A stretch of 63,985 nucleotides of DNA, counting the filler, from Pelomyxa schiedti (Eukaryota; Protista; Evosea): assembly GCA_020536535.1 (NCBI GenBank). It is 9 parts of 9 records of this genome, joined end to end, with 100 filler letters (N's around TTAATTAATTAA, not from the genome) between each part and the next. Parts side by side here need not be neighbours in the genome. Positions count along the whole stretch, not along the records: positions 1 to 19,809 come from JAHLWZ010001100.1; positions 19,910 to 26,113 come from JAHLWZ010001437.1; positions 26,214 to 51,372 come from JAHLWZ010000397.1; positions 51,473 to 52,779 come from JAHLWZ010002602.1; positions 52,880 to 54,021 come from JAHLWZ010002776.1; positions 54,122 to 56,268 come from JAHLWZ010002107.1; positions 56,369 to 60,549 come from JAHLWZ010001626.1; positions 60,650 to 62,875 come from JAHLWZ010000078.1; 1 more part is not named here. One strand, written 5' to 3'. The translations under genes and the position numbers were made by a program. This document shows positions 18,119 through 63,985 of this stretch, one piece after another. How positions within the stretch are numbered: position 1 is the stretch's first letter; each line of letters starts with the position of its first letter. The notes under the pieces are model-generated. The model was not told the origin of the DNA. It was given only the letters and a program-made list of their open reading frames with translations, and searched no databases.

Positions 18119-19447
18119 TCACCACAGGAAAGAGGTGTAAGGCAACATGTCACATACCCACCATCCATCAATTCCAAAGGACACAACAACCTGGGTTGAT
18201 GATGCTTCAATCACCTGAAGTTTGTTGTGGTTTTTCTCAGTGAATACGATGAACCCACCACCAGTCATCTCGTTGGCATCATCCATGTAGTCTGGGATGC
18301 ATTTGACAACAGGGTACTTCTTGGAGGTGTCATTGCAGTCCCAGATATCCAGCCTATTTGCGTGGTACACTGAGAACAGTGAGCTACTCACTTGGTCCAA
18401 GACGAGATAAATTCTGGGGGTGTATAGCTTTCTTGCATCCCCATTTGATTGCACAGACATCACAACAGTCTCGTGGTCTCGAGTCTCTTGGGCAGAGAAA
18501 ATGAAAACATTCTCACCCACCTTGTTTTGCATCACAACGATGGTTTCTATGTACCAATCCTCATCAAGCTTGTCGTCTGGAAATGGTGTTGCTCCCATAA
18601 TCTCCAGTACTCTGGAGGAGTATGTCTTGGCCACATCCACCACCAGGAAATATCTGGCTCTCTTTCCCTCAGAGTCCTTAACAAGGATCACTGCCTGTGA
18701 TGGGACCACTTTATTCAGAACAAGGAACGTGGCTCTGTAAGAAGGATGCGGAAGTGCAACCGAAACACCAGAATCCACCCCAACAGCTGCCGTAGGTGTT
18801 ACAACAAACAGCTTGCCACCACTCTTGAGGTTCACCAACCAACTCCTGTTTGCACACAAGTGCGAAATGCTCCCCTCCTCCCGCCTCAGAACCGTTTTCA
18901 CACCAGTCAATGCATCAATCATTCGAACCTCAGGCCTCTCAGCTGTGAGGCCATCCACCCCAATGAATCTGTTTTCATCAACCCACTGTTGCTTCTCGAC
19001 GATGTGCGGCAGGTGCACTGATGTCACTTGCACGCCGCCACCCATAATCCCGAGAAGCAGCGGCGACACACTGAACCTGAATGCGCACGTCGGAAACGTC
19101 TTCCTTTCCTCGCCATCATCTTCTTTGCGCTTAAGAAGGACATCCACGACGATTGCCCTCTGGCAGCCCACGACCCAGTCGTCCCACAATTGCCTCAGCA
19201 TGTGCGCACCCAGCGCGCGAGCGGGCGACCGACTCCCGCACCTCGCCGAGACAACGCCGAGGGCCAGCGACGCGAACTGCGCGGGGGCGCTCAGCCCCCC
19301 CTCGTGAATGACGATGTCACCGAGCCATTCTGGCTTCGTCACTTTGATGATCGGCGCCTTCACACTTGCTTCCTTTTTTGGTGGTGCTACTCGTGGTTGA
19401 TCGATCCTTGGTCTCTTGTGCGTCGGAGGCGTGGGTTCGTCTGACAT
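18119..19447 (-). CDS. RCG-motif family protein (intronless, beta-rich)
   Basis: QFASLALGVVSARCGSRSPARALGAHMLRQLWDDWVV; ANRSWLV; DIWDCND; QVIEASSTQVV. Confidence 0.75.
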   Translation of the reverse strand: MSDEPTPPTHKRPRIDQPRVAPPKKEASVKAPIIKVTKPEWLGDIVIHEGGLSAPAQFASLALGVVSARCGSRSPARALGAHMLRQLWDDWVVGCQRAIVVDVLLKRKEDDGEERKTFPTCAFRFSVSPLLLGIMGGGVQVTSVHLPHIVEKQQWVDENRFIGVDGLTAERPEVRMIDALTGVKTVLRREEGSISHLCANRSWLVNLKSGGKLFVVTPTAAVGVDSGVSVALPHPSYRATFLVLNKVVPSQAVILVKDSEGKRARYFLVVDVAKTYSSRVLEIMGATPFPDDKLDEDWYIETIVVMQNKVGENVFIFSAQETRDHETVVMSVQSNGDARKLYTPRIYLVLDQVSSSLFSVYHANRLDIWDCNDTSKKYPVVKCIPDYMDDANEMTGGGFIVFTEKNHNKLQVIEASSTQVVVSFGIDGWWVCDMLPYTSFLW

Positions 19448-19571
19448 TGATGACTTGTCGCCTTCTCGGAAAGAAAGACTGATTTTCAATTGAAAATCAT
19501 TACGGAAGTGAGAAAAACAGCGCGGCGTGTGTGTTCGTTGAATCGGGTCTCGCCGCGGCTGCGCGGCCTTG

Positions 19572-19740
19572 ACATAAATGGCATGTTTGGGGTTGTGGGG
19601 ACTGTGCAGTGACTTGCCTCTTTGTTTACCTCCACTACCATCAAAAAAATCGCTGCTACGAGGGGAGACCATGCCGCCCTGGGGTGAATACCCGCCTTGT
19701 CTCTTCCATCACGTCGTTCCATCTAATATTAATTGTTTTA
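19572..19740. repeat. Dispersed repeat; an inverted homologue lies at about 33700-33865
   Basis: Shared cataaatggcatgtttggggttgtgg..actgtgcagtgacttgcctctttgttta..ccactaccatcaaaaaa...ccatctaatattaattgttt. Confidence 0.75.
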
Positions 19741-19809
19741 TTTCTGAATCAATTAAATTAATTTATATATCTATTAAATATTTAATATATATTTTATTTA
19801 TTAATTAAT

Positions 19810-19909
19810 NNNNNNNNNNNNNNNNNNNNNNNNNNNNNNNNNNNNNNNNNNNNTTAATTAATTAANNNNNNNNNNNNNNNNNNNNNNNNNNNNNNNNNNN
19901 NNNNNNNNN
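19810..19909. other. Artificial contig linker N44-TTAATTAATTAA-N44 (also at 26114, 51373, 52780, 54022, 56269, 60550, 62876)
   Basis: An identical all-frame stop 12-mer flanked by Ns occurs at 8 positions. Confidence 0.97.
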
Positions 19910-20018
19910 TGTCTGCAACGTCTTCCGACGTTGAAGACCCTGCTGCAGCGAAAAAGATTGCATTCCTTGGTTGATGTTTTGTGCGAGACACTCCTTCACT
20001 TGTGTGTGAAAACGTTCC

Positions 20019-21929: not shown

Positions 21930-23155
21930 TCAGGGTGCCCTTGGGTTCCAGTGATGGATCAAATGTATCTCCTGCTGCAATTTCCGGTGCTGCCTCTGGC
22001 GTTCTTGGGTAATACTCTTGAGTCTACTGACGTGGATCAGTCTGAGCCAGGGGAAATCCTCTGCTTTGTCCCAATCATACTTCTTCCCCCTGGTTCTGCT
22101 GCAGTATGCCTGCGATCTTCTTGTACATTTAGAAACGCAAGATCCTTTTCTGCCATGGTCTGTGCGGTTGCTAGCACCGTTCCAGCAGGGATTCGCACAG
22201 TCTCTTGCTTGGGATTGAGTATACAAATAGGTAGAGTTCCTTTCTTCAGCTCGGCTCCCACTCCTGGGGCTATGCACAAATTCACATTAGTTGCAGGTGT
22301 TATATTATACAGCGTTCCTTCTGCAGCCTCTGCATTCACTTGTACCTTCGCGACGACTTTATGTCCAGTGAGATACTCCTTATCCTCTCGGGTGGTAAGG
22401 AATACCCTAGTATGATCTGGTGTACAGTGGCAATGTACTTGCTTATTCCATGGCAACTCCATGCAGTCAATTGAAGGCAGTTAGACTTCATATTCTGCTC
22501 TGAAATCATTACCAAGCACCCAGATGTTGTCTATGTTATCGATCACTAGCAAACGTGAAGCCAATCTTCTTCCCTGCCAGTGTGAATCTCACTCTAATTG
22601 TATTTTCAATACACAAGCTTGTCTTCCCAGCTAGTAGTGATCTGCTCTCATATGGGGTTTGTACAAACTTATTCCCATTCTTTTTTTCTAACTCTGCAAC
22701 AAGGTTCCGACTTATCAGTGAATACCCTGAACCGGTATCCAAGCAAACTTCCCTTGACAGTCTACTCTGTTTCTGTAGGTGTGAATTTATTCCCAACACC
22801 ATCTCCATTAACATTGAACATTCTTTCGTGGGTATTATCTGCACATCTGTTTATTTCCTCAGTTCACTGATCTTTGAGTCTTTATGTCTCCACAACTGTC
22901 ACCTTTGCTGGTTCTCACCATCGCCATCGATGTATTGCCAGCTGGAATACTACTGCTGCTACTACTACCCCTAATCATGAACTTATCTGGATCCTGCACA
23001 TACCACTTGTTGGCTATCTCTGCATATTTTGAGAATGTTCTAGAGATATGCTGTCAACTGTGGCAGCACAGCAACACTCAATCTCATTGACCCAATCAGG
23101 GGGTATTCTGCAGCATCGTCATCGTCCACATCCTGAACAATCTCTTGCAGTCTAT
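21930..23155 (-). mobile_element. Ty3/Gypsy gag-protease remnant
   Basis: Aspartic protease motif VCLDTGSGYSLIS, followed by WVLGNDF and ICILNPKQETVRIPAGTVLA; interrupted by stops and frameshifts. Confidence 0.7.
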
Positions 23156-23160: not shown

Positions 23161-24184
23161 CTAAGTAAATAAGAAAGAAAGTGCTGTTCCATTGAGGTTG
23201 TTATTTACCACTTTCAGTTGTTTGTGCTGAGCAGAAATTTGGTGGGTATTAACATTATTCTTGTGGAGACTTACTTCCAATAATGCTTTCACAGTGAGCT
23301 GTAATAAATGGCAACCACAAGGGATCTGCATGAACTGCAGTTGCTGTGCAGTAGCCTTCACATTGCTGCCACCATCACAGTTGAAGGCAAATATTCTGAG
23401 TGAACATCAGGTGTTGCATAGGGATGCAATGTATTCTGCATAAGAATTGGCTGTGGAATCAGTGGTGACTTTCACTCCAGCAAGAAACTCCAAAGGTGCC
23501 CACTGCTCAGTTATGACATGAAATATCACCCCAAAGTAGCTATGTTTGATGTGAAGAATAGGCTGTGGGAAAAAGAAAACCATTGATGACCATGCATCCA
23601 CTTCAATGCTAGCATATTTTGTACCACCCAAAGCATGTTTTATCTAAATACTCATAAATTTTCGAACCACAGTGATGTATACCTGGTCCATCACTTCACT
23701 GTGCAGTGGTGGGACTTCAACTGATCTTAGATGACTTCTAGCAGGCACTGTGAAAGCAGGATTTAACTCACACACAAATGCACGAAATACTGCATTTTCC
23801 ACAATGCCCACAGCAGATGAGTTGTGCAAGGCTTCGATTCAACTTAGCTTTGGCAGTGTCTGACAATGTTGGCAAACAAGGCTCCTTTACAGTGTAAAAC
23901 ACAGTCAAAAGAAAAACAACAGCACAGAGATGATGCAGCATTGATGAAGTGGATTTCTTGTTGGCCCAACTCTGTGAGCACAACGCACACTGCACCTTAC
24001 CACCAGACACTTCTTGAAAATGCCTCCATCCTCTGCTACACTTATGGCGCCAAGGTGGCAGTGGTGTGATGTTGGTACTCATCAAGTTGTAATTTATATT
24101 TTTCCTCCTCGACCAGAGGGAATAAAAATGCTGTGATTGGGATGATTTCGAAGAAAATGAATTGTCTTTGACAAAGTTAGACAC
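23161..24184 (-). mobile_element. hAT transposase remnant (BED finger + partial DDE) with introns
   Basis: WRHFQ..KVQCALC..STSSMLHHL; IVENAVFRAFVCELNPAFTVPAR; ASIEVDAWSS; DGGSNVK; IPCGCHLLQLTV; intron 23644-23682. Confidence 0.8.
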
Positions 24185-26585: not shown

Positions 26586-27809
26586 ATGATGAACGACGCT
26601 CCTCTCGTTGTGGAGATGAATGGCACAACAGCCGTGAGCCAGTTTGTTGCCCTTTTGTCGTCGTCGCACCCTCGTTGTGGTGTGTGCAGCCCGGCACGCA
26701 TCATCTGCTCCGTGGGTCCCATAATGTGTTCCATGTGGCGCGACTTTGTGGTGGCAACGGCGCACCATTTAGTTGTGGTGCTTGGGCCATACCTCTACCC
26801 GCCAACAGCATACTCGGTTCCCATGATCGTGTCCCCACTGCTCGACAGTGTGCTGAACAGCAGCAGTGTCACATGCTCATCAACGAAAGGAGACCTCAAG
26901 TGGCTTGCACCACACTTCGCAATGGAGACCAAGCTTGGGCCTACCAATGGCGCTGTCGTGACGGCTGGGGTGATTGATGATCGTCCCACAATTTACCTTC
27001 AAGCTGGCTTCCACAGCCCGTCCAGTTTTGCCAACAGCAGGTGGTTGATTGTCCCTGATGACTCTGGGCACGCACTGGTAATCAGGAGGCTGCCTGAGGA
27101 ATCGTCAATGCGCAACTGGAACAGTTGTGACTGTGTTTTAGTGGAGCCTGCTCTTGAGGTGTTGATTCCTGAGAGTGACGTGGGGGGCACAATTGGTTTT
27201 TTTGACAACTTGCTTGATCCTGATGAGGTTCTGATGTGCAGCACTTTCCAGAGGAAAACTGTACTCACGCTGATTGATGTTGGCAGCACAGTCCAATCAA
27301 AGAAGCTTGTTGTTGTGGGTTCTGGACAACTCAGCTGGGAATACATTTTCCACACGTGTGGTTCTGCTTGTGTGATGAGGAGAAGGAGTGGTGGAGTTGT
27401 TTTCGTGGTGTCAACCATTGAGAAGCGAGACAGGTTTGAGATCGCAGAGAGCAGGGCTGTTAAGGCAGTTGACAGCACAACAGGGAGTGTCAAGCAGCTG
27501 TCACCCAGGGGAATTGCTGTCATCCATGTCAATTCGTCTGTGTTCTGCATTTGCCCCAAGGAAATGGCATCGTATGAGGTGTGGGACTGCAACAACCTCG
27601 ATCAACCACTGAGGATTGTGGAGACTGTGTGCGCAATTGCAAGCACAACCAACCAGGTTGTTGGTGGGAGGTGTTTCATGTTTGTGGTGCTTGACGGTAA
27701 GGTTGTGGTGATGGACACAATGTCAGGCTTCATCATCACCTCTTTTCTTTCGGTCACTCCATTCTCATTCAACTCCCACATAAGCAAGTGCAACTCCCTT
27801 TTGTACTGA
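26586..27809 (+). CDS. RCG-motif family protein (intronless)
   Basis: SQFVALLSSSHPRCGVCSPARII...MWRDFVV; ANSRWLI; YEVWDCNNLDQPL; VVMDTMSGFII. Confidence 0.8.
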   Translation: MMNDAPLVVEMNGTTAVSQFVALLSSSHPRCGVCSPARIICSVGPIMCSMWRDFVVATAHHLVVVLGPYLYPPTAYSVPMIVSPLLDSVLNSSSVTCSSTKGDLKWLAPHFAMETKLGPTNGAVVTAGVIDDRPTIYLQAGFHSPSSFANSRWLIVPDDSGHALVIRRLPEESSMRNWNSCDCVLVEPALEVLIPESDVGGTIGFFDNLLDPDEVLMCSTFQRKTVLTLIDVGSTVQSKKLVVVGSGQLSWEYIFHTCGSACVMRRRSGGVVFVVSTIEKRDRFEIAESRAVKAVDSTTGSVKQLSPRGIAVIHVNSSVFCICPKEMASYEVWDCNNLDQPLRIVETVCAIASTTNQVVGGRCFMFVVLDGKVVVMDTMSGFIITSFLSVTPFSFNSHISKCNSLLY

Positions 27810-28150: not shown

Positions 28151-28818
28151 TCAGAACAAGAAACAAGAGAAGGGATGGTAAAGGTTGAGGGAACTGACAT
28201 CAGGAAAATTGAGGTTGACAACAACGGTAGTTGGCTCAATGACCTCAATCATGTTGGGAAATTCCTTGAAGATGAATCCTGACTCTGCTGTCACCTGAAA
28301 ATTACTCATTTGGGAATTGGCTTGTTGAAAGAGATTCAGTGGTTGTGCAGAATTATCACGGTGGTAGATGTGCTGCTCACCTGTGCAACAGGACACACAG
28401 AACAGTGAATCAGACATAAGAAGAAGCACGAGATGATGCTGCGGTGCGGCAGGCTTGGGGACACGCTGGCGAGGTCCCTTGGGGGAATGCACACTGGTCT
28501 CTGTGACAGGCTCATGAGGAGAGGGCAGAATGCAAACCTCACTGAAATGTCTTGTGGGTTGCAGGGGTGGGACCCACTGCGTACGGTGCTCACGTCCAGG
28601 ATGAAAAGCCTGATTGTGGGACGTACCACGTCAAACCACAGCATGGCAACGAACGACGTGGCTGGGGCCTGTCCCATAACCTGGAGAATCGGGGCACAGG
28701 CACCGCACCTGGCGACCGAACCAGCAGCCAGTGCGCCAAGTTGGCGCTGTGTCGTCAGCCCGGCAAATGGTGTCGTGTCTTGACACCTGTGACTGGCAGT
28801 TACACTCCACGTTGTCAT
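28151..28818 (-). pseudogene. RCG-motif family gene, internally deleted and frameshifted
   Basis: The N-terminus RQLGALAAGSVARCGACAP joins out of frame to the C-terminus DSLFCVS...AESGFIF...HPFSCFLF; only about 670 bp. Confidence 0.6.
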
Positions 28819-28870
28819 GAAGTTGTTGATGATTTCAAAGAAAATGAAATGCCTTGACTAATCACAAGAA

Positions 28871-29951
28871 CTATCTTTTACTTTCATGTGACAAGAAACA
28901 AGAGAAAGGAGAAGTGAGGTTGATGGAACTGAAATCAGGAAAGGTGATTGTGAGGATCACGAAGCCCGTTGTTGGGTCAATCACATCAACCATGTTGGCA
29001 AACACATTGAACACGAACCCAGACACTGCCATGAACCTCCTCACGTGTTTGCCCCTGTGTTTTGTCTTGTTGCGTTTGAGTTCCTGAAGAACATCCAGAG
29101 GCACAGTGGGCTGATCACGGTGATAGAATCTGAACCACTCCTGCTGTTTGTTGGTTTGGAAGGACACACAGAACAGTGAGTCTGAAACCCTGAACACATC
29201 AACCACGTTCCGATGAATCAGCGTGGAAATTCCAGTTGATTCCACAATGTGATCGACTGGAATGGTGGCCACCATCTCCACAATAACCATTGCCATCACT
29301 GCCACCACCACAACAACAACAACAACAAGGCACCATCTTGGCCACAGTCAAAAAAGCAGGCAGGCCGTGGCCCTCTCGGCGGTACGACACCACCGCCGCC
29401 CATTTGGCGGTGACTGTGAATTCGTACTCGTAGTCCTTGCCGGGTGTGTCCCCTCGCGCGCACGTGACCCACGGGGTTCTGGGGACCACAGGGTCCCAGA
29501 CGCTGAGCTCGAAGCCATCCCAGGGCTGCTGCGTGTACTGGCCGTTGGTGATGTGGGCAACACGGCGGCCGTCGAACAGCCGGCCATACTGCAGGGGCAC
29601 GAGTGTGGGGCCGGGGCCGTGGCTGCTGCTGGTTCCTGCGACACTGAGAAGGAGCGGGGAGAGGGCGAACGAGACGGCGCGGTAGGCGGTGCTGGGGACC
29701 CCTGTGGTGCCGTCGTGGACGCAGGAGACTTGGAGGAGGAAAACCTTGATTGTGGGACGGACCCAGTCGAACCACAGCGTGCGGACCAGCGAGGTGGCGA
29801 GGCCGCGTCCCATAATCCGCTGCATGGCGCTGTTGGCCCCGCACCGCGCGACGGTCGCGCCTGCGGCGAGGGCACCAAGTTGGCCGAACGTGGTGGCGGC
29901 ACCCGTTGATGTCACCTCGTTGTCTGCCGTTGCCCACCTTGTAATGGACAT
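28871..29951 (-). pseudogene. RCG-motif family gene with frame break near 29230-29330
   Basis: MSITRWAT..GQLGALAAGATVARCG in one frame; the C-terminus SDSLFCVSF..AVSGFVF..SPFSCFL in another. Confidence 0.6.
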
Positions 29952-29994: not shown

Positions 29995-31192
29995 ATGGCC
30001 GACGGTGATGTGGTCGTGATCGACACCGAATTCGAAACTGATGCACGTGCCCAATTCATTGCCCTCGGCGTTGGTGTCATTGTGGGACGTTGTGGGGGAT
30101 CCAGCCCTGTTTCGGCCCTCACGCCGTCGTCCCTGTCGATCCTTGGTCGCGATTGGATCGTGTTCCCCGCCAGAGTCGTTGTTGCCAAGCTGGCGCGCAG
30201 AGACGCAAAGAAGTACGTCAAGATCAGCGTGTCGCCGACGCTTGGGCTCGTGGGCCATCCCACAATTGTCCCGTTTGGTCGCCACCAAGTCAGCAGTTTC
30301 TTCCACTGGGTCGGGCCTCTGTCTTGCGGTGATCGGTTCGCCCTGGTGTTTGCCCGGGTGGGAGCAAATCATGACCCTTGGGAGTTGGAAGTATGTGCGA
30401 TTGACACCAGATTCAGTGGGCAGAGGAGGCGTGATGATGATGCCCTTGCTGTTGGTGGGGGGGAGCGGGATGTGAAGCTCATAATGAGGGTGGACCTGTC
30501 CAGGCCTTGGTGCAGCAACAGGCGCTGGGTCGTGGGCTCAGGGGCACAAGGTGGATTTCCGACCGCTCTGAGCCTGTGGAACCTCGATGGTGTCGAGCAT
30601 GGAGATGGAACGGAAAGTAGAATCGAGGTCACGATGCCGGGAATGGTGGCAAGGATGGCATTTGGTGGTTGCAAGAGTGGCAGCTCCTTGGTGGTGCAGT
30701 GGAAAGGTGGCGTACTGCTGATTGACCTGGAGGCCACTGCTGCACAGAACAGGCTGGTTTCCACACCACTGTCATTTATCACACTCGATGATGGGAATAC
30801 ATTCACATGTGTGCTGGCAGGGAATGGACTATGGGCTGCTCTCTTACGAGCAAGGCCTTCTTTGCCTGAGCACTGGCCAGAGGAGGGCAATCCGCCCTGA
30901 GACCACATGTGCCATTGGTGGGCCCTATGCAGCTATCTACAGATACCAACACCGAGACTACACTGAAATAGAGGTGTACAGTATGTTTGAACCAACCAAG
31001 GTGTGCTGCACACACAGGGCACAGAGGGGAAGGCAGAGATTGGAGATTGGGAATGAAACTGTTCTCCTGGATGATGATGTATCCATCAGAGTCATTGACG
31101 CTGTGTCTGGATTGCTTCTGTGCAAGATGTTTGTCAAAGGCTTCCGTGCCACTGAAATTTCCAACCACAGCAATAACCGACAAAATTTGTAG
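29995..31192 (+). pseudogene. RCG-motif family gene with one frameshift near 30805
   Basis: RAQFIALGVGVIVGRCGGSSPVSALTPSSLSILGRDWIV; the C-terminus LLCLSTGQRR..IRVIDAVSGLLL is in ORF 30722-31192. Confidence 0.65.
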
Positions 31193-31299: not shown

Positions 31300-32367
31300 T
31301 TATGAAATCACTCGTCTGAAACAACAGGGGAGCAGATGTTGGCTATGTATTCCATCATCTTTGTTTGCATGTGCCAGCATGTACCATCTGAGCGCCTCCT
31401 TGATGTCACTGAACCCCATGTGCCCCCTCTCCAGTGCCCTGGCGTACATCACCTGTGCACTGCTGTGTCCCCAGTCTGCTGCCTCCCTCAGCACAGTGAT
31501 ACCTTCTTTTGGGTTTGGTGCAGTGCCACCATCCCCAGTTCCAACTGTGAGGAAGTATCCCAACTGTGCCATGGCATCAGGGAACACCTGCTGTGCTGCA
31601 ACAGAGTACATTCTCACAGCCTCTGTGATGTCCTGCCCAACACCTTCGCCAGTTTCCAGGCAGGTGGCCACCTCAGTCTGACATGGTGCTGAGTTCATGC
31701 TGGCACCCATCTTGAACAGCCTGAATGCCTCATTCTCGTTCTTTGGAACTCCATTTCCCTTGAGGTAACACAGTGCCAGGTTCCTCATTGACAGAACGCT
31801 GCCCTGTGACACACCTTTCCTGAAGTATTCTGCTGCGAGTGTTGTGTCCTTGTCCACACCAACACCAAGGGAGTATATCACACCCAAGAGGTAATTCCCA
31901 GCCGAACTCAGTGATGCCTCTTGTGATTCAACAGCTCTGTGGGCAATCCTCCTGAAAAAGAGCTTTTGTGCTTGCGTTCCAGCCATTCCTCTGTCCAGGA
32001 ATTCGTCCAAGGGATCCACAGCAAAGGGCCTCATCGCAGAGAATTCCTTTGTGGCAACAAACACAGCCCACCTCAACAAGAACCATGCAATGGTCTCGGT
32101 GACTGCAAGAGAGTCTCCTCCAAGTGACTCACAATTGTCGGGTTGCAGTGCGCTTGTATTTTTCATCCTTGTGTTCCATTTTTCCACCCATCTGGCACCA
32201 ACATCATGACAGTGATGATGATGACTAGGTTTCGTTTCATCTCGTTCAGTGTCTGTTGTTTTTGCCACCATCAACAGCATTTCGTTGCACCTTGGGATTG
32301 CCTCCTTGAAGTTGCCATTTGCACACATTCTCACTGTCTCGATCACAAAGTCATCGACAGCCGTCAT
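31300..32367 (-). CDS. Sel1-like repeat protein (intronless)
   Basis: LLGVIYSLGVGVDKD, LALCYLKGNGVPKN, VATCLETGEGVGQD, AMAQLGYFL, EALRWYMLA. Confidence 0.85.
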   Translation of the reverse strand: MTAVDDFVIETVRMCANGNFKEAIPRCNEMLLMVAKTTDTERDETKPSHHHHCHDVGARWVEKWNTRMKNTSALQPDNCESLGGDSLAVTETIAWFLLRWAVFVATKEFSAMRPFAVDPLDEFLDRGMAGTQAQKLFFRRIAHRAVESQEASLSSAGNYLLGVIYSLGVGVDKDTTLAAEYFRKGVSQGSVLSMRNLALCYLKGNGVPKNENEAFRLFKMGASMNSAPCQTEVATCLETGEGVGQDITEAVRMYSVAAQQVFPDAMAQLGYFLTVGTGDGGTAPNPKEGITVLREAADWGHSSAQVMYARALERGHMGFSDIKEALRWYMLAHANKDDGIHSQHLLPCCFRRVIS

Positions 32368-34223
32368 CGTTTCGTGTTGGAGAATTCGGCTGTTTCTGAG
32401 AAAAAACCGATGATGACGACGTCCCTTTGTTTTCAGAGTGACGGCAGCCCTACGAGGGACCAAATATGGTGCTGGTGGGTCCCCGTTGTGGATGCGGTTT
32501 CCGCAACAAATTCTTCGTTTTGTGTCTTTCCGATTCGTTTATTTATGTTGCGCTTTCAACGCTCCTCCGCACCTTCAACTGACAACAAGTTGGTTTTGAT
32601 CGGAGGAGGGTTGTTGGCAGTTTTACTGTGTCTACTACGAAATTTTTCGACTTTAGAGTGTATTTTGTTTCGGTATGTTTTGTTTGTACAAGATCTAGCT
32701 TTGTGTTTGTTTGGTTTTGGACTTGTTCGGTTTTGTCCTTGTTCTCACATCAACACAGACAACAACGAGAAGAAGCGGACATTGACATTTCTGACAACAC
32801 AGTGTGTCCCCAATGCATTGCACCACACGCGGTAAAGGTGTGTTTCTGGCACCTTTACCTTTCTTTTTTTCTGTCTTCACTCACATACATACTTTAAAAA
32901 ATGATAAACATCATGCATACAACATCTGAAAAACGAATTCGTTCATAGAAGTTTATGCATGATAGAAAGCTGCAAATTTGAAGCTTGGAATAATCAAGCC
33001 ATAACTACATACATAGATTAATTTGGCTCCATTTACAATAGGTGAATTAAATTTGTTTGTATTTATTGTTTTGGTTTTGTGGGATTGTATTTGCGTTTTA
33101 ATAAGTTGTTGCACTTATTCTGTGTGCGCACTGACCAGATGCAAAGCTACGTCGATTCCCGCTCTTAGTATTGCCCTAGAAGCGGGTTTAATCAGCCTAA
33201 AATGATTTTACTTCGTTAGTTATCGATTTTCAAAGTAGTACATACAATCTGAAAACAAACACCACCACAGAGTGCATATTGCCAATTCACTGGCGTTGTT
33301 GTCTTCTTTGCCACAACTGTTCTATTTGCTTGTTTATTTATAGGAGTGGTGTTTTTGATTTTATTATTTAACAAATTTATTTTGTTATAAATAATAATTA
33401 ATTGCACCTCCAGTTCTTTTTTCCATTCAACCTGTATTAGAAGTCTCCGCATTACCAGTATTTACAGCAGCTTTCCACCAGTATGTGACTTCTTCTTTCT
33501 TCGTTTTCTCACATAGGATAATTTAGGTGCCAGATGTGGTGGCTGGAATCCCAGCTGGTTAGGTAACTTCCTTCTGTATTTTCTGAGACTAGCATGGTGG
33601 TATGTAGCTTTTTTTTTTAAAGTTGTAGGCCTTATCAAGTCGTAAATGTGTAAAAAACAATTAAAAAATAAATTAAAGAAGAAACAAACACATTCATAAA
33701 GAAAACAATTAATATTAGATGGCACAATGTGATGGAATATACAACACAAGGCTGGTACCACATTTGGTATCCCCTTGTAGCAGCAATTTTTTTGATGGTA
33801 GTGGAGATAAACAAAGAGGCAAGTCACTGCACAGTCTCCACAACCCCAAACATGCCATTTATGTTGGGGCCACACAGCTGTGGCAAGACCTGACAGCAAA
33901 CACACACACTGTGCCGCCACTGAGGCAACCACCCTGGGGCACAAAACTTAGACAAATCCCAGCAAAATCGGCTGCTTCTCACTGCCGTGCACACTAAAAA
34001 TTGTTTCTTTGCACCCAATGTACAATAAAACAACACTCATCAATAACATCAGGTCACTGTTCCATGTCATAGATAAACCAAAGACACCAAAACAAACACC
34101 CCACTGGTGAGTGAGAACCAGTGCCAGGTGTCTTAGACAAAATACACACAAAAAGGGAGAAAAAGGCAACCACCCAAAAGCGGGAGCACAGCGAACCTCT
34201 TTTGGGTGGGTAGCCACCAAAAC

Positions 34224-34495
34224 GGCGAAAGTTTGCATGTTGTGGCAAAGGGCAGTTACAGGCCTTGGGTCTGAGGATGAGTCGAAATGAACTCAACCTG
34301 GAAATTGGCACTTTCCCATGGGAACCGGTGAACCCTGGGGCAATGGAGCCACAATGGGGGGTGACCTTGGAATGTGACATGGTGGATGAACAGCATGATT
34401 GGCAGAGTGGCGAAAGTTTGCATGTTGTGGCAAAGGGCAGTTACAGGCCTTGGGTCTGAGGATGAGTCGAAATGAACTCAACCTGGAAATTGGCA
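34224..34495. repeat. 87-bp perfect direct repeat (34224-34310 and 34409-34495)
   Basis: ggcgaaagtttgcatg...acctggaaattggca appears twice. Confidence 0.9.
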
Positions 34496-35384
34496 TCATT
34501 GCTGTTCCAAGCTTGGTCATTACGGGTGCCTGACAGCATGTTAGTGGGACCAGGGAAGGTTATGGTGGGTACAAACCGAACAGTTTCCAAAGGTGTCCGC
34601 TTTAGTATGTGGAAAACGTGAGAGGAAGAAAGAGGAAAGACAAGGGGACCTACCCAACTTCCCAGGCACCAGCTGGGTGGAGTTAGTGTAAGTTGGGAAC
34701 ACGGCAGAGTGGAGTGTAGGAGCCCAGTGAGCGGGAGTGTTGGTGTGCAAGAGCAAGAGCAAGAGCAAGGGGTGTTAGTGCCGAGGTGAAACAGGTGAAG
34801 GCGGGTAAAGCCTGGCATGCACTATGTTTGTCAGTGGCGTCCATTGTCCTGTTGTTGTTGAGTGGTGATAAGTTAAGGGAGAGGGAATGCACCTTGGTGA
34901 TAGATTGTCAGCAGGTCCGCCACCTGAATAATATGTGGGCTGCCTGGGAAAGAAAAAAAAGAAGCCACCTACCAGCATCACTGTTCAATGTGCTGGAAAT
35001 GCAGGAAAGGGCTGTGGTGTGCAACACTGGAACCTGGGTCTGGGTACCTACATGTGAAAGTGTTTCCTTAAATGCAGACTACACTGGACAATGTGGGTGA
35101 TAATACAAAGGGAGGTGGATTTACCGTGGCAATGACAAGTTGCAACACGACCTGATTATAAAGTGTGAGAACTTGAAAAAGAAAAACAGAGAAGATACCT
35201 GTAGCTCTGGCTTGGTTCAGAAGTCTGACTGAGTGCCGGAGGGAATCAGCCCTATGTTGCCATGAGGAAATGGAACACAACAGTAAGTTTAACACAAGAC
35301 TAAGGAAGAACAATACAAGACAAACAAAACGAAACAACACGAAACGGAGTGAAACGAAACGAAACAAAACAAAACAAAACAAAA

Positions 35385-39752: not shown

Positions 39753-40855
39753 ATGGACCAACACTGCACCAGTGGACCGTTCAAAATCGAACGGGTGTTG
39801 GACGCACGGTCACAGTTCGTTGCGTTGGCATGCGGTGCCATGATCCCACGTTGTGGTCGTGGTGGTGTTGCTGGCGATGGCACAACCCGCGTCTGGCCCC
39901 TCTCCGCGGTGAGGCTCCTGTCCAACGCCACTTACGTGTTGGTGAGCCACATTGGGACCAAGTGGGTTGTTCCAGCAGAGACGTGGCAGCAGCAGCAGCA
40001 TCGGCGAGCCATTGGCTTCAGTGTATGTGGCAGCGACCCACTCCAGTGCGGCGACTGTGCAAAAACAGTCAATACCTGCAGGTGTGGAGGCTTGGCGGCG
40101 GCCTGCCTGTTGGTCACTGTAAGGCCTGGGGGTTTACCCACAACACCTTCTCAGTTCGCGTGAGGTTCAGCCCTCTGGGATGCAACGGCCACCATGGCGA
40201 CGAACTGGTTGTAGCGACAATTATTACATCAGACACCAATGATTTCGAGACAACCGAGCTGCTGTTCATTGACCTGGAGGCGAGCTTTATGGATGGGCAT
40301 CTGGCTCTAACCAGCAGCATTGTTATTCCAGACACAAGAGTTGTTGACTTTCTGTGGGTGTCCCACGACGAATTACTCCTTCTCAACTGGTCAAAAACTG
40401 GTTTTGTACTGCAACCTGTTGTAAATGGCACCGTGGCAGGGGGGAAAGTACTATTCCCAGAGCGAAAATACACAAGTTTGCAGTTCATACAACCAGCACA
40501 TGTACTTGCACAAACGAAGGCAAGGAGTGGCAGCAGGGGTTCTGAGGTTTACTCCACCTCGAACTTGAGTGAGCCACTGTACCTGCAAACACATGCAAGA
40601 AGCTTGTATCTTCGCTCGGGGTTTGTTGTGTTCACCGGTGGTGATGCCCACACTGTGAGACAGAGTTTCCAGGATGTTGGGACAGGCACAGTTCTGTTCG
40701 CCCTGACACGCACCCATAATGTGCCCCCAAACACACAAGAAGCCCTGTGGACCACCACCACAACCACAACGGCACCACGACCCTCCTCCCCAGACTGGCC
40801 TCCCTTGGGAGATCGTTTTAAAAAACACCGGACCACCGCTCCTGAGCGACGATAA
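39753..40855 (+). CDS. RCG-motif family protein; frame restored by putative intron 40023-40081, otherwise a pseudogene
   Basis: RSQFVALACGAMIPRCG..HIGTKWVV; LLFIDLEASF; FQDVGTGTVLF; gtatgt...ctgcag in the correct phase. Confidence 0.6.
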
Positions 40856-42029: not shown

Positions 42030-42293
42030 TGTTAGCTTCTGTGGGCTCGCGAGCAAGGCCGAGTTCGTGTACTTTGTGGAAGTACACACGTTCCCCCTCC
42101 TGTTGAGCGTGATGACAATCACCAAGCGTTAGCGTAAGAGCAAAATCACTGTACAATTCACGGAGACGGCGTTGACGCGTTGCCGTTGGTCTGCGATTAG
42201 TGCGGCGGAGGCCGCTGTATGTGTTTTTGACGGACATCGGGTCGATGGTGCCGAGACCGCGTCGATGTCGCGGATGTATGTGCGTCGTCACTG

Positions 42294-42339
<46 letters not shown>

Positions 42340-43646: not shown

Positions 43647-44911
43647 CTGGCCAGTTCGTTGCGTTTTCCTGTGGATCAGTTGTGGCAAGGACGAGGGCGC
43701 TGTCTCCACTGCGGCTCCTCTCTGTTTCCCCCTCGATAGTCGAGCAGTTTGGCAGGGAATGGATAGTGTGTGCCTGCAGGGACGTCGTGTTTACAGTGAG
43801 AGGGGAGCTCATGAGAGTCTGCAGTGCGGATGAGGAGCCGTTCGAAATTCATGTTTGGATGAGAGTGTCACCAACCCTTGGTGTTGTGAGGTTGGTGCAG
43901 TTTGCCACGTTCGGGCCTGTGTGGGGATTCAGTGACCTGGTTGCTTGCATTGGGGCACAAGCCACAGCAAGAAGAATACAGCTGGAGGGAACACTCTTTC
44001 GTGGCAGTGGGCATAAAATTGGCAAGGACAGGCTGGTGATGGCAAGAAGTCAGACCAATGGTGTTTTGGTTGACATCGTGGATGAAAGTGGATCGATTGT
44101 GAGGAACTTGTTCCCTGGTGACGGAACTCGTGACCCCAAGTCACTCAGCCCTTCTGTGTGTTCCAACAGCAGGTGGATTGTGTTGGTACTTCCTGCCGAA
44201 ATAAAACTCTGGAGGCTCTTCAATTCCATTGTAAATTCAGATGGGAGTGGCAAGCCACTGTTCACTGAAGAGGACTGTGTGAAAGTTAGCAGGGATTTTG
44301 GCTCCATTCTAAGTTCTGTGGCACTCTGTGAGCGTGATCCTGATCTGCTCCTCGTGGCTTTTCCCCTGTCTTCTGACAATGTCAACGAGATTATCTTGCA
44401 GCACATTGACTTGGTGGCCACCTTTAAACAAAGGGCAGTTATGCTCAAGAAGGAACATGTGCGTCTCCAATTGCCCCTCAATCAGCCTCTTACAGTGCTT
44501 GGTGGTGAGCCAATCTGTGTGGCTGCACATGGAATCACTGACTCACTCCACAACACCAGCACCAACCAGACTCACCCTTTTGAAGGCTACGTACAACCCC
44601 TTGGCAGAAATCTGTTCTCGGTTGTGGGAAATGGGCCCACACTCCAGCGCAAGGTGTTCCACATAAATGACTTCAACACACCTTACAGCATCCATGATCG
44701 TTGGAGGCAAGTTGGCAGCGCAGATGGCTCCATGATGAGACCCTTGCTGGTTCTGAACACTGGCATACTGGTGTGGGTGTGCAGCCCAACCACACCAGGT
44801 GAGGCAGGCCTCCACAGAATGTCAGTGAAGTATGCAATAACTGATGCTGAGAAAGGCACACTCTTGGCATTTGTCACTTACCATGCCCCTGCCAAGAAGA
44901 GTTGTATTTGA
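43647..44911 (+). pseudogene. RCG-motif family gene, 5'-truncated by LTR
   Basis: The LTR end abuts GQFVAFSCGSVVARTRALSPLRLL..QFGREWIV; the rest of the ORF is intact (about 420 aa) but has no native start. Confidence 0.7.
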
Positions 44912-45873
44912 GAACATCTGTTGGTTTCCAAAACACCTCTCACTCCAGAATTCGGTAAGTATCAGAGAACCTCATTCTCAGAAAAACCATCGGAGCAAGA
45001 CAACGGCAACGGCTCACACCATTGACACTCCCAAGGCGCACCCACAAGTGCGGCAACCAGGCCCCGCCTCGTCCTCATTTTCACCCCCGCCACCGCCACC
45101 ACGCGTGACAGTCGACGCCGTCCTGTCGGCCGCGAGCCAGTTCGTCGCGTTCGCGTGCGGCTCGGCTGTGGCCAGGACGAGGGCGCAGTCGCCGGCCAGG
45201 CTCCTCGCCGCGTCGCCGTCGGCCGTCGAGCAGTTTGGCAGGGAGTGGGTCGTGCGCGCGTGCAGGGAAGTGGTGTTCTCGGCCAGTCTCCGCGGCCTGG
45301 GGTTCTCCACGGTGCACGTGCGGATGTACCTGTCACTTACGCTCGGTGTTGTGAGGTCGGTGCAGTTCGGCACTTCGGGGGACCCCTGCTACCTGGCTGG
45401 CTGCATTGAGTCCCCGGCCACAGCGAGGAGAATACACCCGGAAGAAGAATCGGCGGTGGTGGAGGAGGATGACGGAGGAGTACAGGGCGGTGGCGGTGAG
45501 ACTGGCGACGAAAGGCTCCTGATGAAGATGAATGTTCGTGGAATTACGTATGTCAACATTGTGGACGGGAAGGGCTCGGTGGTGAGGAACTTGGTGCCTG
45601 GCAGTGACGCCCGTTTCCCAAGGGTGCTCAGTCCGTGGGTGTGTTGCAACAGCAGATGGGTTGTCGTTGTGGATACAGTTTACCTGATCATGTGGAGGCT
45701 CTGGGGTGGTGGGCATTTGCTCACTGGGGAGTGCCGTGAAAGTATCAAGCTAGACAGGTCACCAGTTGGCTGCGCATTACAGGTTCAAGACCCTGATGTC
45801 ATGCTCCTGGCTGCTGGGAAGCCAAATCACGATTTCAGTGGGTTTTTACTGTGGCATGTTGACCTGATCGAGA
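44844..45873 (+). CDS. RCG-motif family protein, tandem paralog of the 43647 gene, 3' lost in gap; start unclear
   Basis: SQFVAFACGSAVARTRAQSPARLLAASPSAVEQFGREWVV; CCNSRWVV. Confidence 0.65.
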
Positions 45874-48800: not shown

Positions 48801-50561
48801 GCGTCAGGCATCAAAGAAGGTTGACTGTATTACTGCCTGGAAACGAAAAACTTGGTTGTCAGTCTGAAGTTGTCCTGCTGCAGGTAATCCCTTGGTTCGA
48901 TATAGAGAACTACTCCTAATAATGAATAAAAGGTTAGAGCCTTGCTCATTTCCACCTCAGAATTGTTGTAGTATTATCAGGCCTGGTTACTGCTTGCATC
49001 TAGCTCAATATGGCTTCCAGAATCATGGCAATTACAGCCGAATCAGGGTAGTATTGTAGTCCTTGGTGGCCAGATGGATCTCATAGCTTTTGGTAGGCTC
49101 TCAAGTTCTCAGGTAGTTCCTCCTCTCATGGAACATTGGTGTTCTAAGTTCCTCCAGTTTGCCTTGGGCTCTCTTGCGTTGTCCCATAACTTGGGAGCTT
49201 GCAATATCAGCTGCTTGAGTTATTGTTTGTTTGGTGGGCTGCGCTCTAGTTGGGTGACCTTTTTTGAATGATTCCCTGTTTACTACATCCCCAGAGATGA
49301 CAGGGTGACCTCGAATTGAAACAATGTGTGTCCAGCATTACTTGAACTCCCAATTTAGCCCGAAATAATGGGGGAGCTGCTGGGTCCTCTGCAAGGAGTA
49401 TGTGTGCACACTTCTTCTTTCAAAGAAAGTTTACGTCTTGCAGGGCAGAAATGATTAATGGCGTGAGGTCTCAACAAATATTGGAAATAGGAGCGTGATG
49501 GATGATCCAGCCAAAGTGCAAAGCTGGGATCCACCACAGGGATGTGCCTCGCTCCTGTATGCACCATGATCCACCCAAGACATATAATTATGTCATCATT
49601 TCTCATGGGCAATTTACAGGGCGGCAACAAAACGATATCTGCTTGGTAGAAAAGTGAAATTCCATGGAAGCAACATTATTAACACAAGCAGATTCACAAC
49701 GAGATTAATTTGGATGCAAACAACGCAATACAAGGTTTGAAACAATACAGTTTCAAGTATAATTCAAGTTTTAATTGTTAAATAGCTAATGGCTACGCAG
49801 GTTTGTGACAATTCATGAGTTATCTGAGCTCAGGGATTCATATTTTCTCCTTCTCTTGGCCTCTTCTCAAACCGGCTCTGTTGGTGCTCTCTGCTCAGCT
49901 CAAACTCGCTGGTAAGCACTCCTTTCATCACATCCACGCTCTTCTGCACCCTGATGCCATTCCAGAGAATGCTGATGCGATTTGTAATATTGTACAGCCT
50001 CAGTCTTGTTCTGCTCTTGCCGCGGAATCAGCGGTTTCACCTTCAGGCTTGCTCATGCAGCCTCAGTTCCCATAACGCCGCTGTTGAAGCCCAGGTTGCT
50101 GTTGATACCTCTGATAACTATATCACTTACGCAATTCAGTTCTCTGCAAAATTGCCTTAGAATGTGAGCCTTTACTTCCTGGATTGCAATTAGACTCTCC
50201 AGAAGCACTGGCCGTTGTGCTGTAAGGTTGGTTCTGCTTGTGGAATCACTGATCCTAATCTCAGTGCAGATTCCAGGCTTGCCAGTTCTGGTTCCCTTGA
50301 GGGCTTGGCCATCCATGATGCCAGCTTGCTGTATTTATCTTTGGTGTGGGATTTGCATGCTTGTGCATTGCCGTATGACTTCCGCTGATTTACAGTTGCT
50401 TTCCGGCATTTCCGCATGTCTCTTCTGACTCCACTCTGCTCCTCTCGGTAGCAGCACCTCGAAGTAAGAGATTGGAGATTCATTGAAATCAATCAAATCA
50501 AATCGAATCAATCGGAAAATAATCATTGGTGTTGGGTGTCGACGCCGATGGGTCCTTCATC

Positions 50562-52181: not shown

Positions 52182-52376
52182 CTCGCCCAGTTTTTTTGAT
52201 TTTTTGATTTACAGTGGACTGAGGGTGGTGTCCTGATTGCACTTCCCCAGCCCTGGCAGTGTGGTTTGTTGTACAAAACTGCATCAAATTTCCGAGTTTG
52301 GACTTGAAAGAAAAGGCTGACGGTTCTGACAGTGGACTGTTGCATTTGCCTGCCACTTCCACTACTAGTGGTGCTA

Positions 52377-52779
52377 TGCTGATTGATGGATGTGGTTGGG
52401 CAGTTTCCTCCGTGCAGCGTGCCACCGACCAGATCCGTGCCCTCATCATCGCCGTTCCCTCATCGCCAACGGCCAAACCCAGAGCCACAGCCACGGCCAC
52501 GGCAACTTGCAGCTCCCCCACTCACCCCCACCCCCTGAGTCCCATAATAACAAAGAAACCGCGCAGCTCCTCCACACTCCACACGCACAAGCAGCAGGAA
52601 CAACAACAGCTACAGCAACAGCTACAGCAACAAGGCCACAGCAACGACCAACAACACGCCACAAATGTGAGGCTCAGTGGTGCTCCCACAAGCACTTGTT
52701 TGTGGGGCAGCAGTGGCCACGTGGTTGCAAGGCTGCTGTGGGACCTGGTTGCGCAACACACCACTACGTTTGTGCTGCA
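52377..52779 (+). CDS. Divergent RCG-motif family protein, 3' partial
   Basis: ATDQIRALIIAV..(low-complexity insert)..RLSG..HVVARLLWDLV. Confidence 0.5.
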
Positions 52780-60649: not shown

Positions 60650-62090
60650 GGGGTGCAGTTGGTGCTGCTGACACTGACGCACGACATGAGGTGGTGGGTG
60701 GAAGTCTGTGCCGACGGCCTTCTCGGCGCGAACCAGGACTTTTTGGTCCTGCGAAGAACGGAGGCGCTTTTCTTATTGCAGGACAGGGTGACTGGCCAGA
60801 GGGTGCCTCTGTTTGAGAACAAGAAGGGAAGGGGTTTTGATAGTGTGGCCACTAACGGGAAGTGGTTTGTTGGATGCCAACGACAAGGGAAGATGCTTGT
60901 TGTTAAGATTCCACAGAAGAACCCCTCAGGTTCCAAAACAGCCATCAGGAAGCCAACAGTTGTTTCTTTTGATAAGAGGTGGAGGGCATGTATTCCCAGA
61001 TGTGGAATCAATGAGGACCACCTGTTACTTCGCTGTCATGGCTTCTCCAACTTTTTTAAGTTTGTTCTTGTGGACCTTTTGCAAACGTATACATCAAACA
61101 AATTGGTTGTGCTGAGTTCATCTGTGCCGAGGTTGGAGGCCACACACCCTATTGTACTTGGACGTGGCCTGCTAATTTGCAATCCAGTTTATTCATTCAG
61201 AAAAGAGAATGGCTCTCATTCGTTTGTGCTGGGACATTATATTCCTTCAGCTTTTTCTCGTGGTGTGCCTGATTTCATGACATTTGAGGAGGGAACTGGG
61301 GGAAAGCCGCAACCAACCTTCCCATCGGCCAAACCATTTCATCTATTTCATGAAGGATGGCTTCAACAACTGGATAAGTCACAGTTCTGTGCTTTTTCTG
61401 CTGATGTTGATGCCTACGAAGTGTGGAATCTGAATGACACAACAAGGCCAGTCAGGAAGCAGAAATTCCTGAGTGGCTGTGCAAAGGATGCTTTCATTGA
61501 GGGGGGACTTCTGTTCCAAGTGAGTGAGTCACTCAAAGAGATACACGTGACTGAGGAATCCTCTGGTGTCCACATCATCACTTTCAATTTGTTCAGACCC
61601 TTGANNNNNNNNNNNNNNNNNNNNNNNNNNNNNNNNNNNNNNNNNNNNNNNNNNNNNNNNNNNNNNNNNNNNNNNNNNNNNNNNNNNNNNNNNNNNNNNN
61701 NNNNGTGGTGTGCCTGATTTCATGACATTTGAGGAGGGAACTGGGGGAAAGCCGCAACCAACCTTCCCATCGGCCAAACCATTTCATCTATTTCATGAAG
61801 GATGGCTTCAACAACTGGATAAGTCGCAGTTCTGTGCTTTTTCTGCTGATGTTGATGCCTACGAAGTGTGGAATCTGAATGACACAACAAGGCCAGTCAG
61901 GAAGCAGAAATTCCTGAGTGGCTGTGCAAAGGATGCTTTCGTTGAGGGGGGACTTCTGTTCCAAGTGAGTGAGTCACTCAAAGAGATACACGTGACTGAG
62001 GAATCCTCTGGTACCCACATCATCACTTTCAATTTGTTCAGACCCTTTATGGGTCTTTGGCACCATTTTTCCTTCCCTCTCTCTGAATGA
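60650..62090 (+). CDS. RCG-motif family protein, 5' partial (spans gap with duplicated flanks)
   Basis: Near-identical N-terminal part to the 62256 gene; TNGKWFV, FVLVDLLQTY, YEVWNLNDTTRPV, EGGLLF, IHVTEESSG. Confidence 0.75.
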
Positions 62091-62255
62091 ACTAACCACG
62101 GCAACCCTCAAGAAGTTCATACTTTGTGACAAGGTTTTTTCTTACGAGGTTTTTAGCCACCAAACCAAAACAATCTAACTGGATGTTTAATTCTGCATCA
62201 CTGTGGCATCAAAATTTGATTTTGATAAAAACAGAGGGAAACATCGAGACGAACC

Positions 62256-62875
62256 ATGGACCGTCAACCATTGCGTGATGTATCTGGGGCCTTGGCACCT
62301 GCATCACCACAACCACAACGGCGGCAAGTGGGCAACGTAGTGACCGCGGCGCCGACGGTGATGGTGGTGGTAACAAACGACAAGGCCGGTTCCGGCGACG
62401 CAGCGCCAACAAAGGCGATGAGGACACGCACCACGATGAGGGAACAGGTGTGGGCACTGGCGACAGGGACGCACCCTCGGTGTGGCGCGAGGTGCCCGCT
62501 GTGGCTGCTGTCACCAATTATGGGTGGCGGTGGCGACGGCGACGGCGCCGGGGCGCTGGTGGTGAGGATTCTGTGGGGGTGGCTGCGGGAAACATCGAGG
62601 TTCTACTGTGTCATGTGGGGCAACTATCTTGGGGAGGTGGTGATGATCACGTTCGGGGTGCAGTTGGTGCTGCTGACACTGACGCACGACATGAGGTGGT
62701 GGGTCGAGGGCTGTGCTGAGGAGCTTATTGGTGCGAACCAGGACTTTTTGGTAGTGCGAAGAATGGAAGTGCTTTTCTTATTGCAGGACAGGGTGACTGG
62801 CCAGAGGGTGCCTTTGTTGGAGTACAAGAAGGGGAGGGGATGTTCTTGTGTGGCGACCAATGGGAAATGGTTTGT
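62256..62875 (+). CDS. RCG-motif family protein, 3' partial
   Basis: EQVWALATGTHPRCGARCPLWLL..LVVRILWGWL. Confidence 0.75.
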
Positions 62876-63184
62876 NNNNNNNNNNNNNNNNNNNNNNNNN
62901 NNNNNNNNNNNNNNNNNNNTTAATTAATTAANNNNNNNNNNNNNNNNNNNNNNNNNNNNNNNNNNNNNNNNNNNNGCTGGCACCACTAGAGCAATTAAAA
63001 TCTGTAAACGAGGGGGCCTTCAAATCAGATGACATGGTGCTTTACCAGCTTTGGCAAATCAGGCAGTTTGACAGTGCTGAAGAATTGACCTCCTGGTGGA
63101 GCACAATCCTCCCCCGCAGATTCTGGACATCTCCATTGTGTGCCAACCTCAGCAAATCCCCCAATCCCTTTTTGTCGAAAAAGA

Positions 63185-63985
63185 ATGTCGTTCTCAGCAA
63201 GCATCCAAGTTGTTGTTGACGGACGATCGCAGTTTGTTGCGTTTGCGAGTTCGTCGATCGAGAGGTGTGGTGTTGCGAGTGCCGCCAAGTCGCTGTCACA
63301 ATCGGGCGCTGTGCGAGTCGTTCGGCCGCGACTGGGTCGCCGGCTGCCTCTACCAAGTCGGTGCCACGGCCACGGCCGCGGAAGTGTGCCGAGGGGCGGT
63401 CGCGTCGACCGACGGGGAGGAGGAGGGCGTGCACGTGTTCATGGGCCTGAGCGCCACCCTCGGCGTCGTGTGGTCCACGTGCCCCGCGGTCCGCGGGTTG
63501 GTCCTCGGCGACGGCACGTCCGCGGGCGTCGACCGCGTGGCGGCGTGCTTGGGCGACACATACAACAACAACAACCACAACAACAACAACGGCAACGGCG
63601 GAGGCAGGTTCGTGGCGGCATCCACGTGCATGGCCACCGTGCTCGACGCCGCGGGGAAGGCCGTGACTGTGCTGGCCGACACCGAGGGCGACGAGATGAA
63701 CTGGTACCCTGAGGGGTTCTGGGTCGGCAACAGCAGGTGGCTTGTGTTTGTTGGCCACCCTGTGTTGCACACGCGGCTCTTTGTGTGGAGGATGGTGGGT
63801 GGCGGTGGTGGTGGTGTGCCTGTGGGCGCTGGCGTGAGGGTGAAGTTGTGTGTTCCGCTCAATAGGAAAGGGGCTGGCTTCTCCAGGTTCAACCCTTGCA
63901 GTGACGAGCTTGTTTTTGTTGGTGGTGAATGTCCAAAGGGCAGTGAGGGTGAGGGCGCAAAGGGTGAAGGTGCAGCAAGTGAGGC
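63185..63985 (+). pseudogene. RCG-motif family gene with frameshift near 63305, 3' partial
   Basis: RSQFVAFASSSIERCGVASAAKSLS, then LCESFGRDWV..GLSATLGVV..VGNSRWLV in another frame. Confidence 0.6.

Follow-up and report, generated by a model that had tools for sequence, protein, structure and literature searches.

A short HPR[LC]G box on a large propeller family of Pelomyxa schiedti and on unrelated microbial proteins: a candidate docking box for cullin ligases

Several known substrate receptors of ubiquitin ligases join a short helical element to a propeller or to repeats. The F-box/WD40 receptors of SCF ligases (Cdc4/Fbw7 type) place a short helical module N-terminal to a propeller. In SOCS-box proteins, which include the ASB and WSB types, the box often follows ankyrin or WD40 repeats as the very last C-terminal element. 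The DCAF receptors of CRL4 have a helix-loop-helix, or H-box, ahead of a WD40 propeller, with a basic-Leu-Gly stretch. Here we describe a protein family of similar outline from the protist Pelomyxa schiedti. It was found in a window of 63,985 nucleotides (nine genome records joined end to end), and its full members consist of an N-terminal box of 45 residues with a conserved HPR[CL]G loop, followed by a predicted beta-propeller.

Further parallels appear in those parts of the literature that are cited here by PMC number. F-boxes are accompanied there by domain types such as ankyrin, WD40, ARM, RCC1 and ubiquitin-like (PMC9485057, PMC4209131), and the SOCS box, like the box described here, is a terminal element of about 40 residues with two conserved parts and a spacer (PMC10509765). 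The NEX/PEX F-box/BTB effectors of the Parachlamydiaceae form birth-and-death families in which a constant box is joined to variable repeats, as in Pelomyxa. These amoeba-associated bacteria carry host-type boxes, just as some bacteria with the Dot/Icm secretion system carry the HPRLG box; their boxes, however, are recognised by Pfam and it is the symbiont that holds the expansion, whereas the HPRLG box is unnamed and its expansion is in the host (PMC4209131). Protist substrate receptors are hard to find, since a study of Dictyostelium Skp1 includes receptor-like interactors without a visible F-box (PMC9485057). If our reading of it is true, a short searchable box would let many hypothetical proteins be annotated together, from those of amoebae and uncultured microbes to the injected-protein candidates of intracellular bacteria. 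Pelomyxa is host to several prokaryotic endosymbionts (PMC10579272), and a propeller family that takes up as much as about 3% of its genes would be a concrete candidate for the control of symbionts or intruders.

The propeller family is real and large. Judging from the sequences compared below, the box is portable across unrelated domains and adaptor-like. The reading we favour, with a probability of about 0.55, is that box and propeller together form a repertoire of substrate receptors and that the box is an undescribed docking box for cullin ligases. What is new here is an unnamed HPRLG box, separate from the known F-box and SOCS boxes, on variable propellers. Motif and topic searches of the full-text literature, with subscription papers and supplements outside their scope, returned no description of either the box or the propeller family.

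The P. schiedti genome is given as 52.4 Mb with 19,876 proteins and 7.43 introns per gene (PMC8887013). In a word-indexed protein search, P. schiedti hypothetical proteins were the sole relatives of the protein encoded at 26586 (loci are called by the positions under which an initial annotation of the window listed them). A family profile of 14 rows, made from 12 window pieces and two relatives, was run against 1.84 billion proteins and matched 620 clusters (50% identity) at E<=0.001, 436 at 1e-10 and 117 at 1e-30. All ten clusters looked up, which are among the best 150 of the 620, are from P. schiedti, as are all 20 named matches of a search with the module. If every other cluster is also from Pelomyxa, the family amounts to up to about 3% of the 19,876 genes. 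Thirteen window members fall into five supported clades, and the family is therefore old and diversified. Its bodies, which had been thought too divergent to align by eye, are aligned by the profile, with a median pair identity of 22% between units. The genes had also been called unannotated, but they are present in the database as hypothetical proteins. Many of the NCBI models contain two tandem units, and three (P0153, P0155, P0156) fuse frame-changed pieces of 28157-29951 and 39753-40855, apparently via predicted introns; public counts of intact genes are therefore unreliable.

The AlphaFold2 model of the 26586 protein, built with 83 sequences (predicted local distance difference test score, pLDDT, 87.9; predicted template modelling score 0.88), has three helices near the N-terminus (Table 1) and then an almost all-beta body. 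The module modelled alone also folds (pLDDT 89). All top structural matches of the whole model are beta-propellers, with no favoured family: the 50 VIA matches listed have Z 14.4-16.8, the best being Z 16.8 (root-mean-square deviation, rmsd, 7.5, 316 residues aligned) and Z 16.2 (rmsd 4.4, 273 aligned), and Foldseek finds at least 500 propellers at E<=0.001. The body is thus predicted to be a ring of four-stranded blades. The string of strands suggests seven blades, with the C-terminal strand closing the ring. A conserved Asp terminates strand c of blades 4, 6 and 7, which is also a WD40 trait and agrees with this register. Pfam WD40 matches neither the window members nor the relatives P0002-P0004, and a Pfam scan of the propeller returned no family.

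The two parts of the protein evolve differently. Pair identity is 41% in the module versus 22% in the body, the module being the more similar in 2641 of 2660 pairs. For two window pairs, ratios of nonsynonymous to synonymous change (dN/dS) come to 0.11 and 0.24 for the module, against 0.57 and 0.34 for the body, rough values because synonymous sites are about 60% different. All nine pairwise estimates are below 1, and of the five variants listed for the 26586 gene four are synonymous. Purifying selection acts on the module. Within the propeller, relative entropy is 0.74 and 0.69 bits in the b-c and d-a loops versus 1.78 and 1.47 bits in the a-b and c-d loops, so that the former are far less conserved (14 versus 13 loops, p=1.4e-4). 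By the WD40 convention the b-c and d-a loops make up the top face, and loops of this putative top face would accordingly vary more than those of the bottom. A constant scaffold bearing a variable binding face should give such a pattern, which is no proof of positive selection. The earlier proposal of a constant helical module on a variable beta-propeller body is borne out by the model, its structural matches and this contrast in conservation.

The box also occurs apart from propellers. A further copy, missing from the initial list of 14 loci, lies at 1916-1830 (-) in an unrelated gene of the window. Its exon stands between kinase-like exons (3054-1950) on the upstream side and, downstream, a Cys/His finger exon with a weak C1_2 match. 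The kinase likeness was seen by eye, Pfam being silent on the three such exons scanned. This copy, which resembles a motif with Leu in place of Cys, prompted a scan of metagenomes for its 12-residue core. The scan gave 117 stretches, and the 107 loci that were read hold 109 in-frame matches, 76 of them unique. With the Pelomyxa hidden Markov model (HMM), the flanks, which lie outside the core pattern, beat flank-shuffled controls in 66 of the 76 copies (p=2e-12). The Pelomyxa and metagenome profiles align to one another with a probability of 97.4% (E 1e-11), and an HMM of 46 metagenome copies, picked partly by Pelomyxa-HMM score, matches 58 of 151 Pelomyxa proteins as well as the window copies at 62439 and 1910. 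By these comparisons, the HPRLG box is widespread, and the Pelomyxa module is a variant of it with Cys. The claim that the system is lineage-specific consequently holds for the propeller family, as far as cluster names were seen, and fails for the module, whose adaptor-like character is upheld by its presence on the unrelated window gene and on metagenome proteins.

In 26 of the 76 metagenome copies the protein ends 12-23 residues after the core. Pfam matches are found in 12 of 40 box-bearing open reading frames (ORFs), and comprise ankyrin (2), WD40, ARM, RCC1 (2), ubiquitin-like with SAP, 2OG-FeII, fibrillarin-like (2), GNAT and one weak domain of unknown function; in the ankyrin, WD40 and ARM proteins the box is at the C-terminus. 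Long fusions among the hits (with Sel1, Rad4, MBOAT, Med22, B-box or kinase) were left out as architectures because they may be merged gene models. Neighbouring genes of 44 ORFs at the metagenome loci gave no pointer to host taxa, and neither Skp1 nor Elongin C is found among the 508 ORFs of these loci. The core pattern has no match in viral contigs, and the box profile none in three giant-virus bins. The box matches nothing in Pfam, and PDB sequence searches with three profiles gave nothing credible.

Among prokaryote genomes the core pattern has 18 matches, most of them chance: one of the 18 reaches at least 18 bits, versus 50 of the 76 in metagenomes. One match lies near the C-terminus of a 329-residue protein of an uncultured proteobacterium. 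The box profile then matched two genomes among 63 of that bacterium's order and two among 400 sampled across the class. Overall these are three genomes, with six box copies on ankyrin-like, leucine-rich-repeat (LRR) and Lcl-domain proteins. All three have DotI/IcmL of the Dot/Icm system and 28-62 ankyrin matches, and one has an ATP/ADP translocase. Two of the three share an order, and these are therefore at most two independent cases. Because F-box and BTB domains in bacteria are carried by amoeba-associated ones (PMC4209131), the natural reading is that the Dot/Icm bacteria would be mimicking a docking tag of the host. One of them, a 1.9-Mb genome (G252, L155-L158), encodes four box proteins with hydrophobic starts that look by eye like signal peptides, one with Pfam LRRs and one with an Lcl domain. 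In a bacterial bin, a long ORF at L144:3-3035 (-) has two boxes in repeated units, nearly identical to the box of metagenome locus L018; it is possibly misbinned eukaryotic or viral DNA.

What does the box do? Since it is also found on unrelated proteins of other microbes and of Dot/Icm bacteria, it is likely to be a docking tag onto one conserved host machine. The machine is probably a cullin-RING ubiquitin ligase, that is, a protein-destruction system. The box, at the conserved face of the propeller, would bind the ligase via an adaptor or directly; the opposite, variable face would capture targets, which would then be ubiquitylated; and duplication and loss would renew the repertoire. If so, our judgement, which is not a result, gives about 40% to Skp1/Cul1, 25% to Elongin C and 35% to DDB1 or a cullin directly. 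We would file the HPRLG box as a separate box working like the F-box and SOCS boxes. A broader proposal is more tentative, and we put it somewhat below even odds: that HPR[LC]G is a new cullin recruitment motif across microbial eukaryotes, in use beside the F-box, BTB, SOCS and DCAF boxes and hijacked by Dot/Icm bacteria, and that Pelomyxa has built from it an intracellular, immune-like repertoire of several hundred propellers with a hypervariable face (about 3% of genes).

Several observations weigh against assigning the box to cullin ligases. An adaptor-like architecture does not identify the machine. The F-box/BC-box identity put forward initially is not recognisable by Pfam: neither F-box nor F-box-like nor SOCS_box matches any of 28 Pelomyxa modules or any of 46 metagenome modules, and the whole family proteins scanned contain no Pfam F-box. 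In hhalign comparisons with 23 F-boxes from giant-virus bins and two SOCS boxes, the last helix of the metagenome profile aligns with F-box helix 1 over 15 columns, with a probability of 3.8% and E 0.011. None of 60 column shuffles, a lenient control, scored as high; still, this F-box likeness is weak and confined to one helix, and the Pelomyxa profile aligns to a different F-box helix, at 0.6%. Against the two SOCS boxes nothing rose above the shuffles, and neither the BC-box leucine nor the LPxP motif is seen in the column frequencies. No Pfam domain is found in 28 of the 40 partner ORFs, and the partners that are recognised include the enzyme-like 2OG-FeII, fibrillarin-like and GNAT domains. 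Finally, no dN/dS above 1 was found; relaxed constraint could account for the variability of the loops; and blades and faces were assigned from the DSSP string and not from coordinates.

The alternative that survives best, though we regard it as unlikely, keeps the propellers as variable receptors and has the box dock on a conserved machine other than a cullin ligase, such as Cdc48/p97, a chaperone, the proteasome or a trafficking coat. A box that is portable, sits at a terminus and has copies in bacteria would suit any conserved eukaryotic partner, and the most conserved part of the box, the H-P-R-x-G-x-x-S-P loop, is without counterpart in F-box or SOCS profiles. We nevertheless prefer a cullin ligase because the partner domains are typical of cullin receptors and because the last helix has the register of F-box helix 1, with an acidic residue. 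The DCAF receptors offer a further comparison: they share with the Pelomyxa family a helical element before the propeller and a basic-Leu-Gly stretch, but HPR[CL]G is a loop in our model, outside the helix.

It is improbable that the box is no more than an F-box or SOCS box that has diverged very far and binds Skp1 or Elongin C in the textbook manner, the family being an ordinary expansion of the F-box/WD40 kind. The size of the box, its three helices and its position N-terminal to a propeller fit such a view. Expanded F-box families are likewise large and fast-turning. Cdc4 is among the Foldseek matches of the 26586 model, at ranks 20 and 37, but it is one of at least 500 propellers. In Dictyostelium, 18 receptor-like proteins that lack a recognised F-box are among the interactors of Skp1 (PMC9485057). 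The order of parts argues otherwise. In F-box/WD40 proteins helix 1 comes first; in our box the helix-1-like part comes last, preceded by the HPR[CL]G loop that is conserved, and the protein often stops there, as in the 26 metagenome copies noted above, leaving no room for helices 2-3. For this reason the box cannot be a normal F-box. Where helices 2-3 would come in the 26586 model, there is a beta-strand. From SOCS boxes it differs in the sequence features already listed and in being N-terminal in the Pelomyxa family. In structure searches with the module model, the best VIA match is an unrelated chain (Z 4.2, rmsd 3.3, 53 residues aligned), no F-box or SOCS box is among the 50 matches listed, and Foldseek finds no match in the PDB. 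A viral structure library gave 11 matches at E 5-10, among which a Pandoravirus F-box protein at E 9.6 is taken to be chance. Co-folding of a 54-residue module with Skp1 from a giant-virus bin, without alignments, scored 0.02 in both runs with the module itself poorly folded, and is evidence neither way. Among the giant-virus bins, one (G462; L002, L159, L160) has Elongin C and two SOCS-box matches on one contig, and others have Skp1 with 2-16 F-box matches.

That the module is a structural cap only, and the expansion largely neutral duplication beside repeats with most copies decaying, is very improbable: six of the eight loci of judgeable status are broken, there are copies in tandem and next to high-copy repeats, and the intact copies are single ORFs in an intron-rich genome, but dN/dS is below 1 in every estimate, the variants of the 26586 gene are mostly synonymous, and the box folds alone and occurs without propellers.

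Thirteen of the 14 loci first listed are upheld by an HMM of 110 full units. The module HMM (46 positions, 110 units) scores 31-60 bits at 12 loci, and 20 shuffles of the residues in the six-frame window reached at most 11.8 bits. Window loci seeded the profile from which this HMM was derived, and its scores there are partly circular; tblastn cross-matches between the loci give support free of that circularity. Locus 52377, below the shuffle maximum, is doubtful, and the loci lie on five of the window's nine contigs, not six. The shared N-terminal pattern is looser than was described: among the 13 loci tested, 11 have the Q..R[CTL][GRS] core, 8 the core with [SC][PA] and 6 [LF][WG]xxW. Locus 60650 is linked by paralogy, as proposed, through a body that scores 224 bits and is 84% identical to that of 62256. 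The frame at 43647, on the other hand, was wrongly counted among those with an intact 5' end.

Table 1. Members of the box family and related features in the window
Feature	Position	Strand	Remarks
Extra module copy in unrelated intron-rich gene	1830..1916	-	One exon, 25.5 bits
Intact single-ORF member, 442 aa	18119..19447	-	Module about 19297-19169, then propeller; 298 bits
Member cut after module by contig end, 68 aa	26214..26418	-	88% identical to 29951
Intact single-ORF member, 407 aa, used for folding	26586..27809	+	HMM, structure model
Module (HPRCG box) of 26586 member	26622..26753	+	Predicted helices at residues 16-25, 38-41, 44-56
Predicted beta-propeller of 26586 member	26763..27806	+	Residues 60-407; seven blades inferred from strand pattern
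Broken member	28157..28818	-	Profile positions 117-302 missing, frame change
Broken member	28871..29951	-	Frame change at TGT microsatellite near 29330; profile positions 187-274 unmatched
Member with frame change near 30820	29995..31192	+	Spanned gap-free by contigs of 2 of 3 DNA runs
Broken member	39753..40855	+	About 100 codons deleted and frame change, compared with close intact paralogue P0154
Member, 5' end abutting high-copy repeat	43647..44911	+	Open frame, no ATG
Member running into assembly gap	44844..45873	+	Module at 45120-45254
Member cut by contig end	51473..52181	-	HMM
Doubtful degenerate member	52376..52779	+	Low-complexity insert between first and last helix-like pieces; RCG core absent; 7.1 bits
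Member without 5' end (contig start)	60650..62090	+	Linked through body
Member cut by contig end	62256..62875	+	HMM
Member with frame change near 63310, cut by window end	63185..63985	+	HMM

Two of the 14 loci are intact (19447 and 26586), six have lesions, five are cut by contig ends or gaps and one is doubtful, which agrees with the initial picture of a large family with many broken copies, as do the 620 clusters for its size. Those with lesions (28818, 29951, 29995, 39753, 43647, 63185) have suffered deletions or frame changes or have a repeat at their 5' end; the members cut in assembly are 26418, 44844, 52181, 60650 and 62256. At 29995, a contig of the third DNA run (30290-31021) carries 14 gap letters across the frame change and may be another allele or copy. 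Within 60650, 61260-61602 recurs across a gap at 61705-62047 with 98.8% identity, probably a scaffold overlap. RNA contigs from one run overlap the broken 29951 locus at 28954-29253 and 29267-29499 and do not include the intact 26586 gene or a nearby Sel1 gene; a gene's absence cannot be read from contigs of this kind, and they may include DNA.

Three pairs of loci stand head to head (26418/26586, 29951/29995 and 52181/52376), with start codons 167, 43 and 194 bp apart; shared bidirectional promoters are possible. In the first two pairs the partners come from different clades. High-copy nested repeats occupy 33184-38498 and 41295-49380, and one of them ends exactly at 43647. Contig depth over 33184-38498 is in the thousands, and this stretch is present in the RNA run too. 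The Sel1-repeat gene, a single ORF at 31300-32367 (-), adjoins the family cluster, and Sel1 repeats also lie next to family units in P0060 and P0095. Another single ORF, of 646 residues at 14539-16479 (-), has weak ankyrin matches and resembles the tail of P0076, which suggests a second expanded family. Between 20019 and 24082 there are ORFs that look transposon-like by eye, one BED-finger-like (23768-24082) and one retroelement-like (22037-22462).

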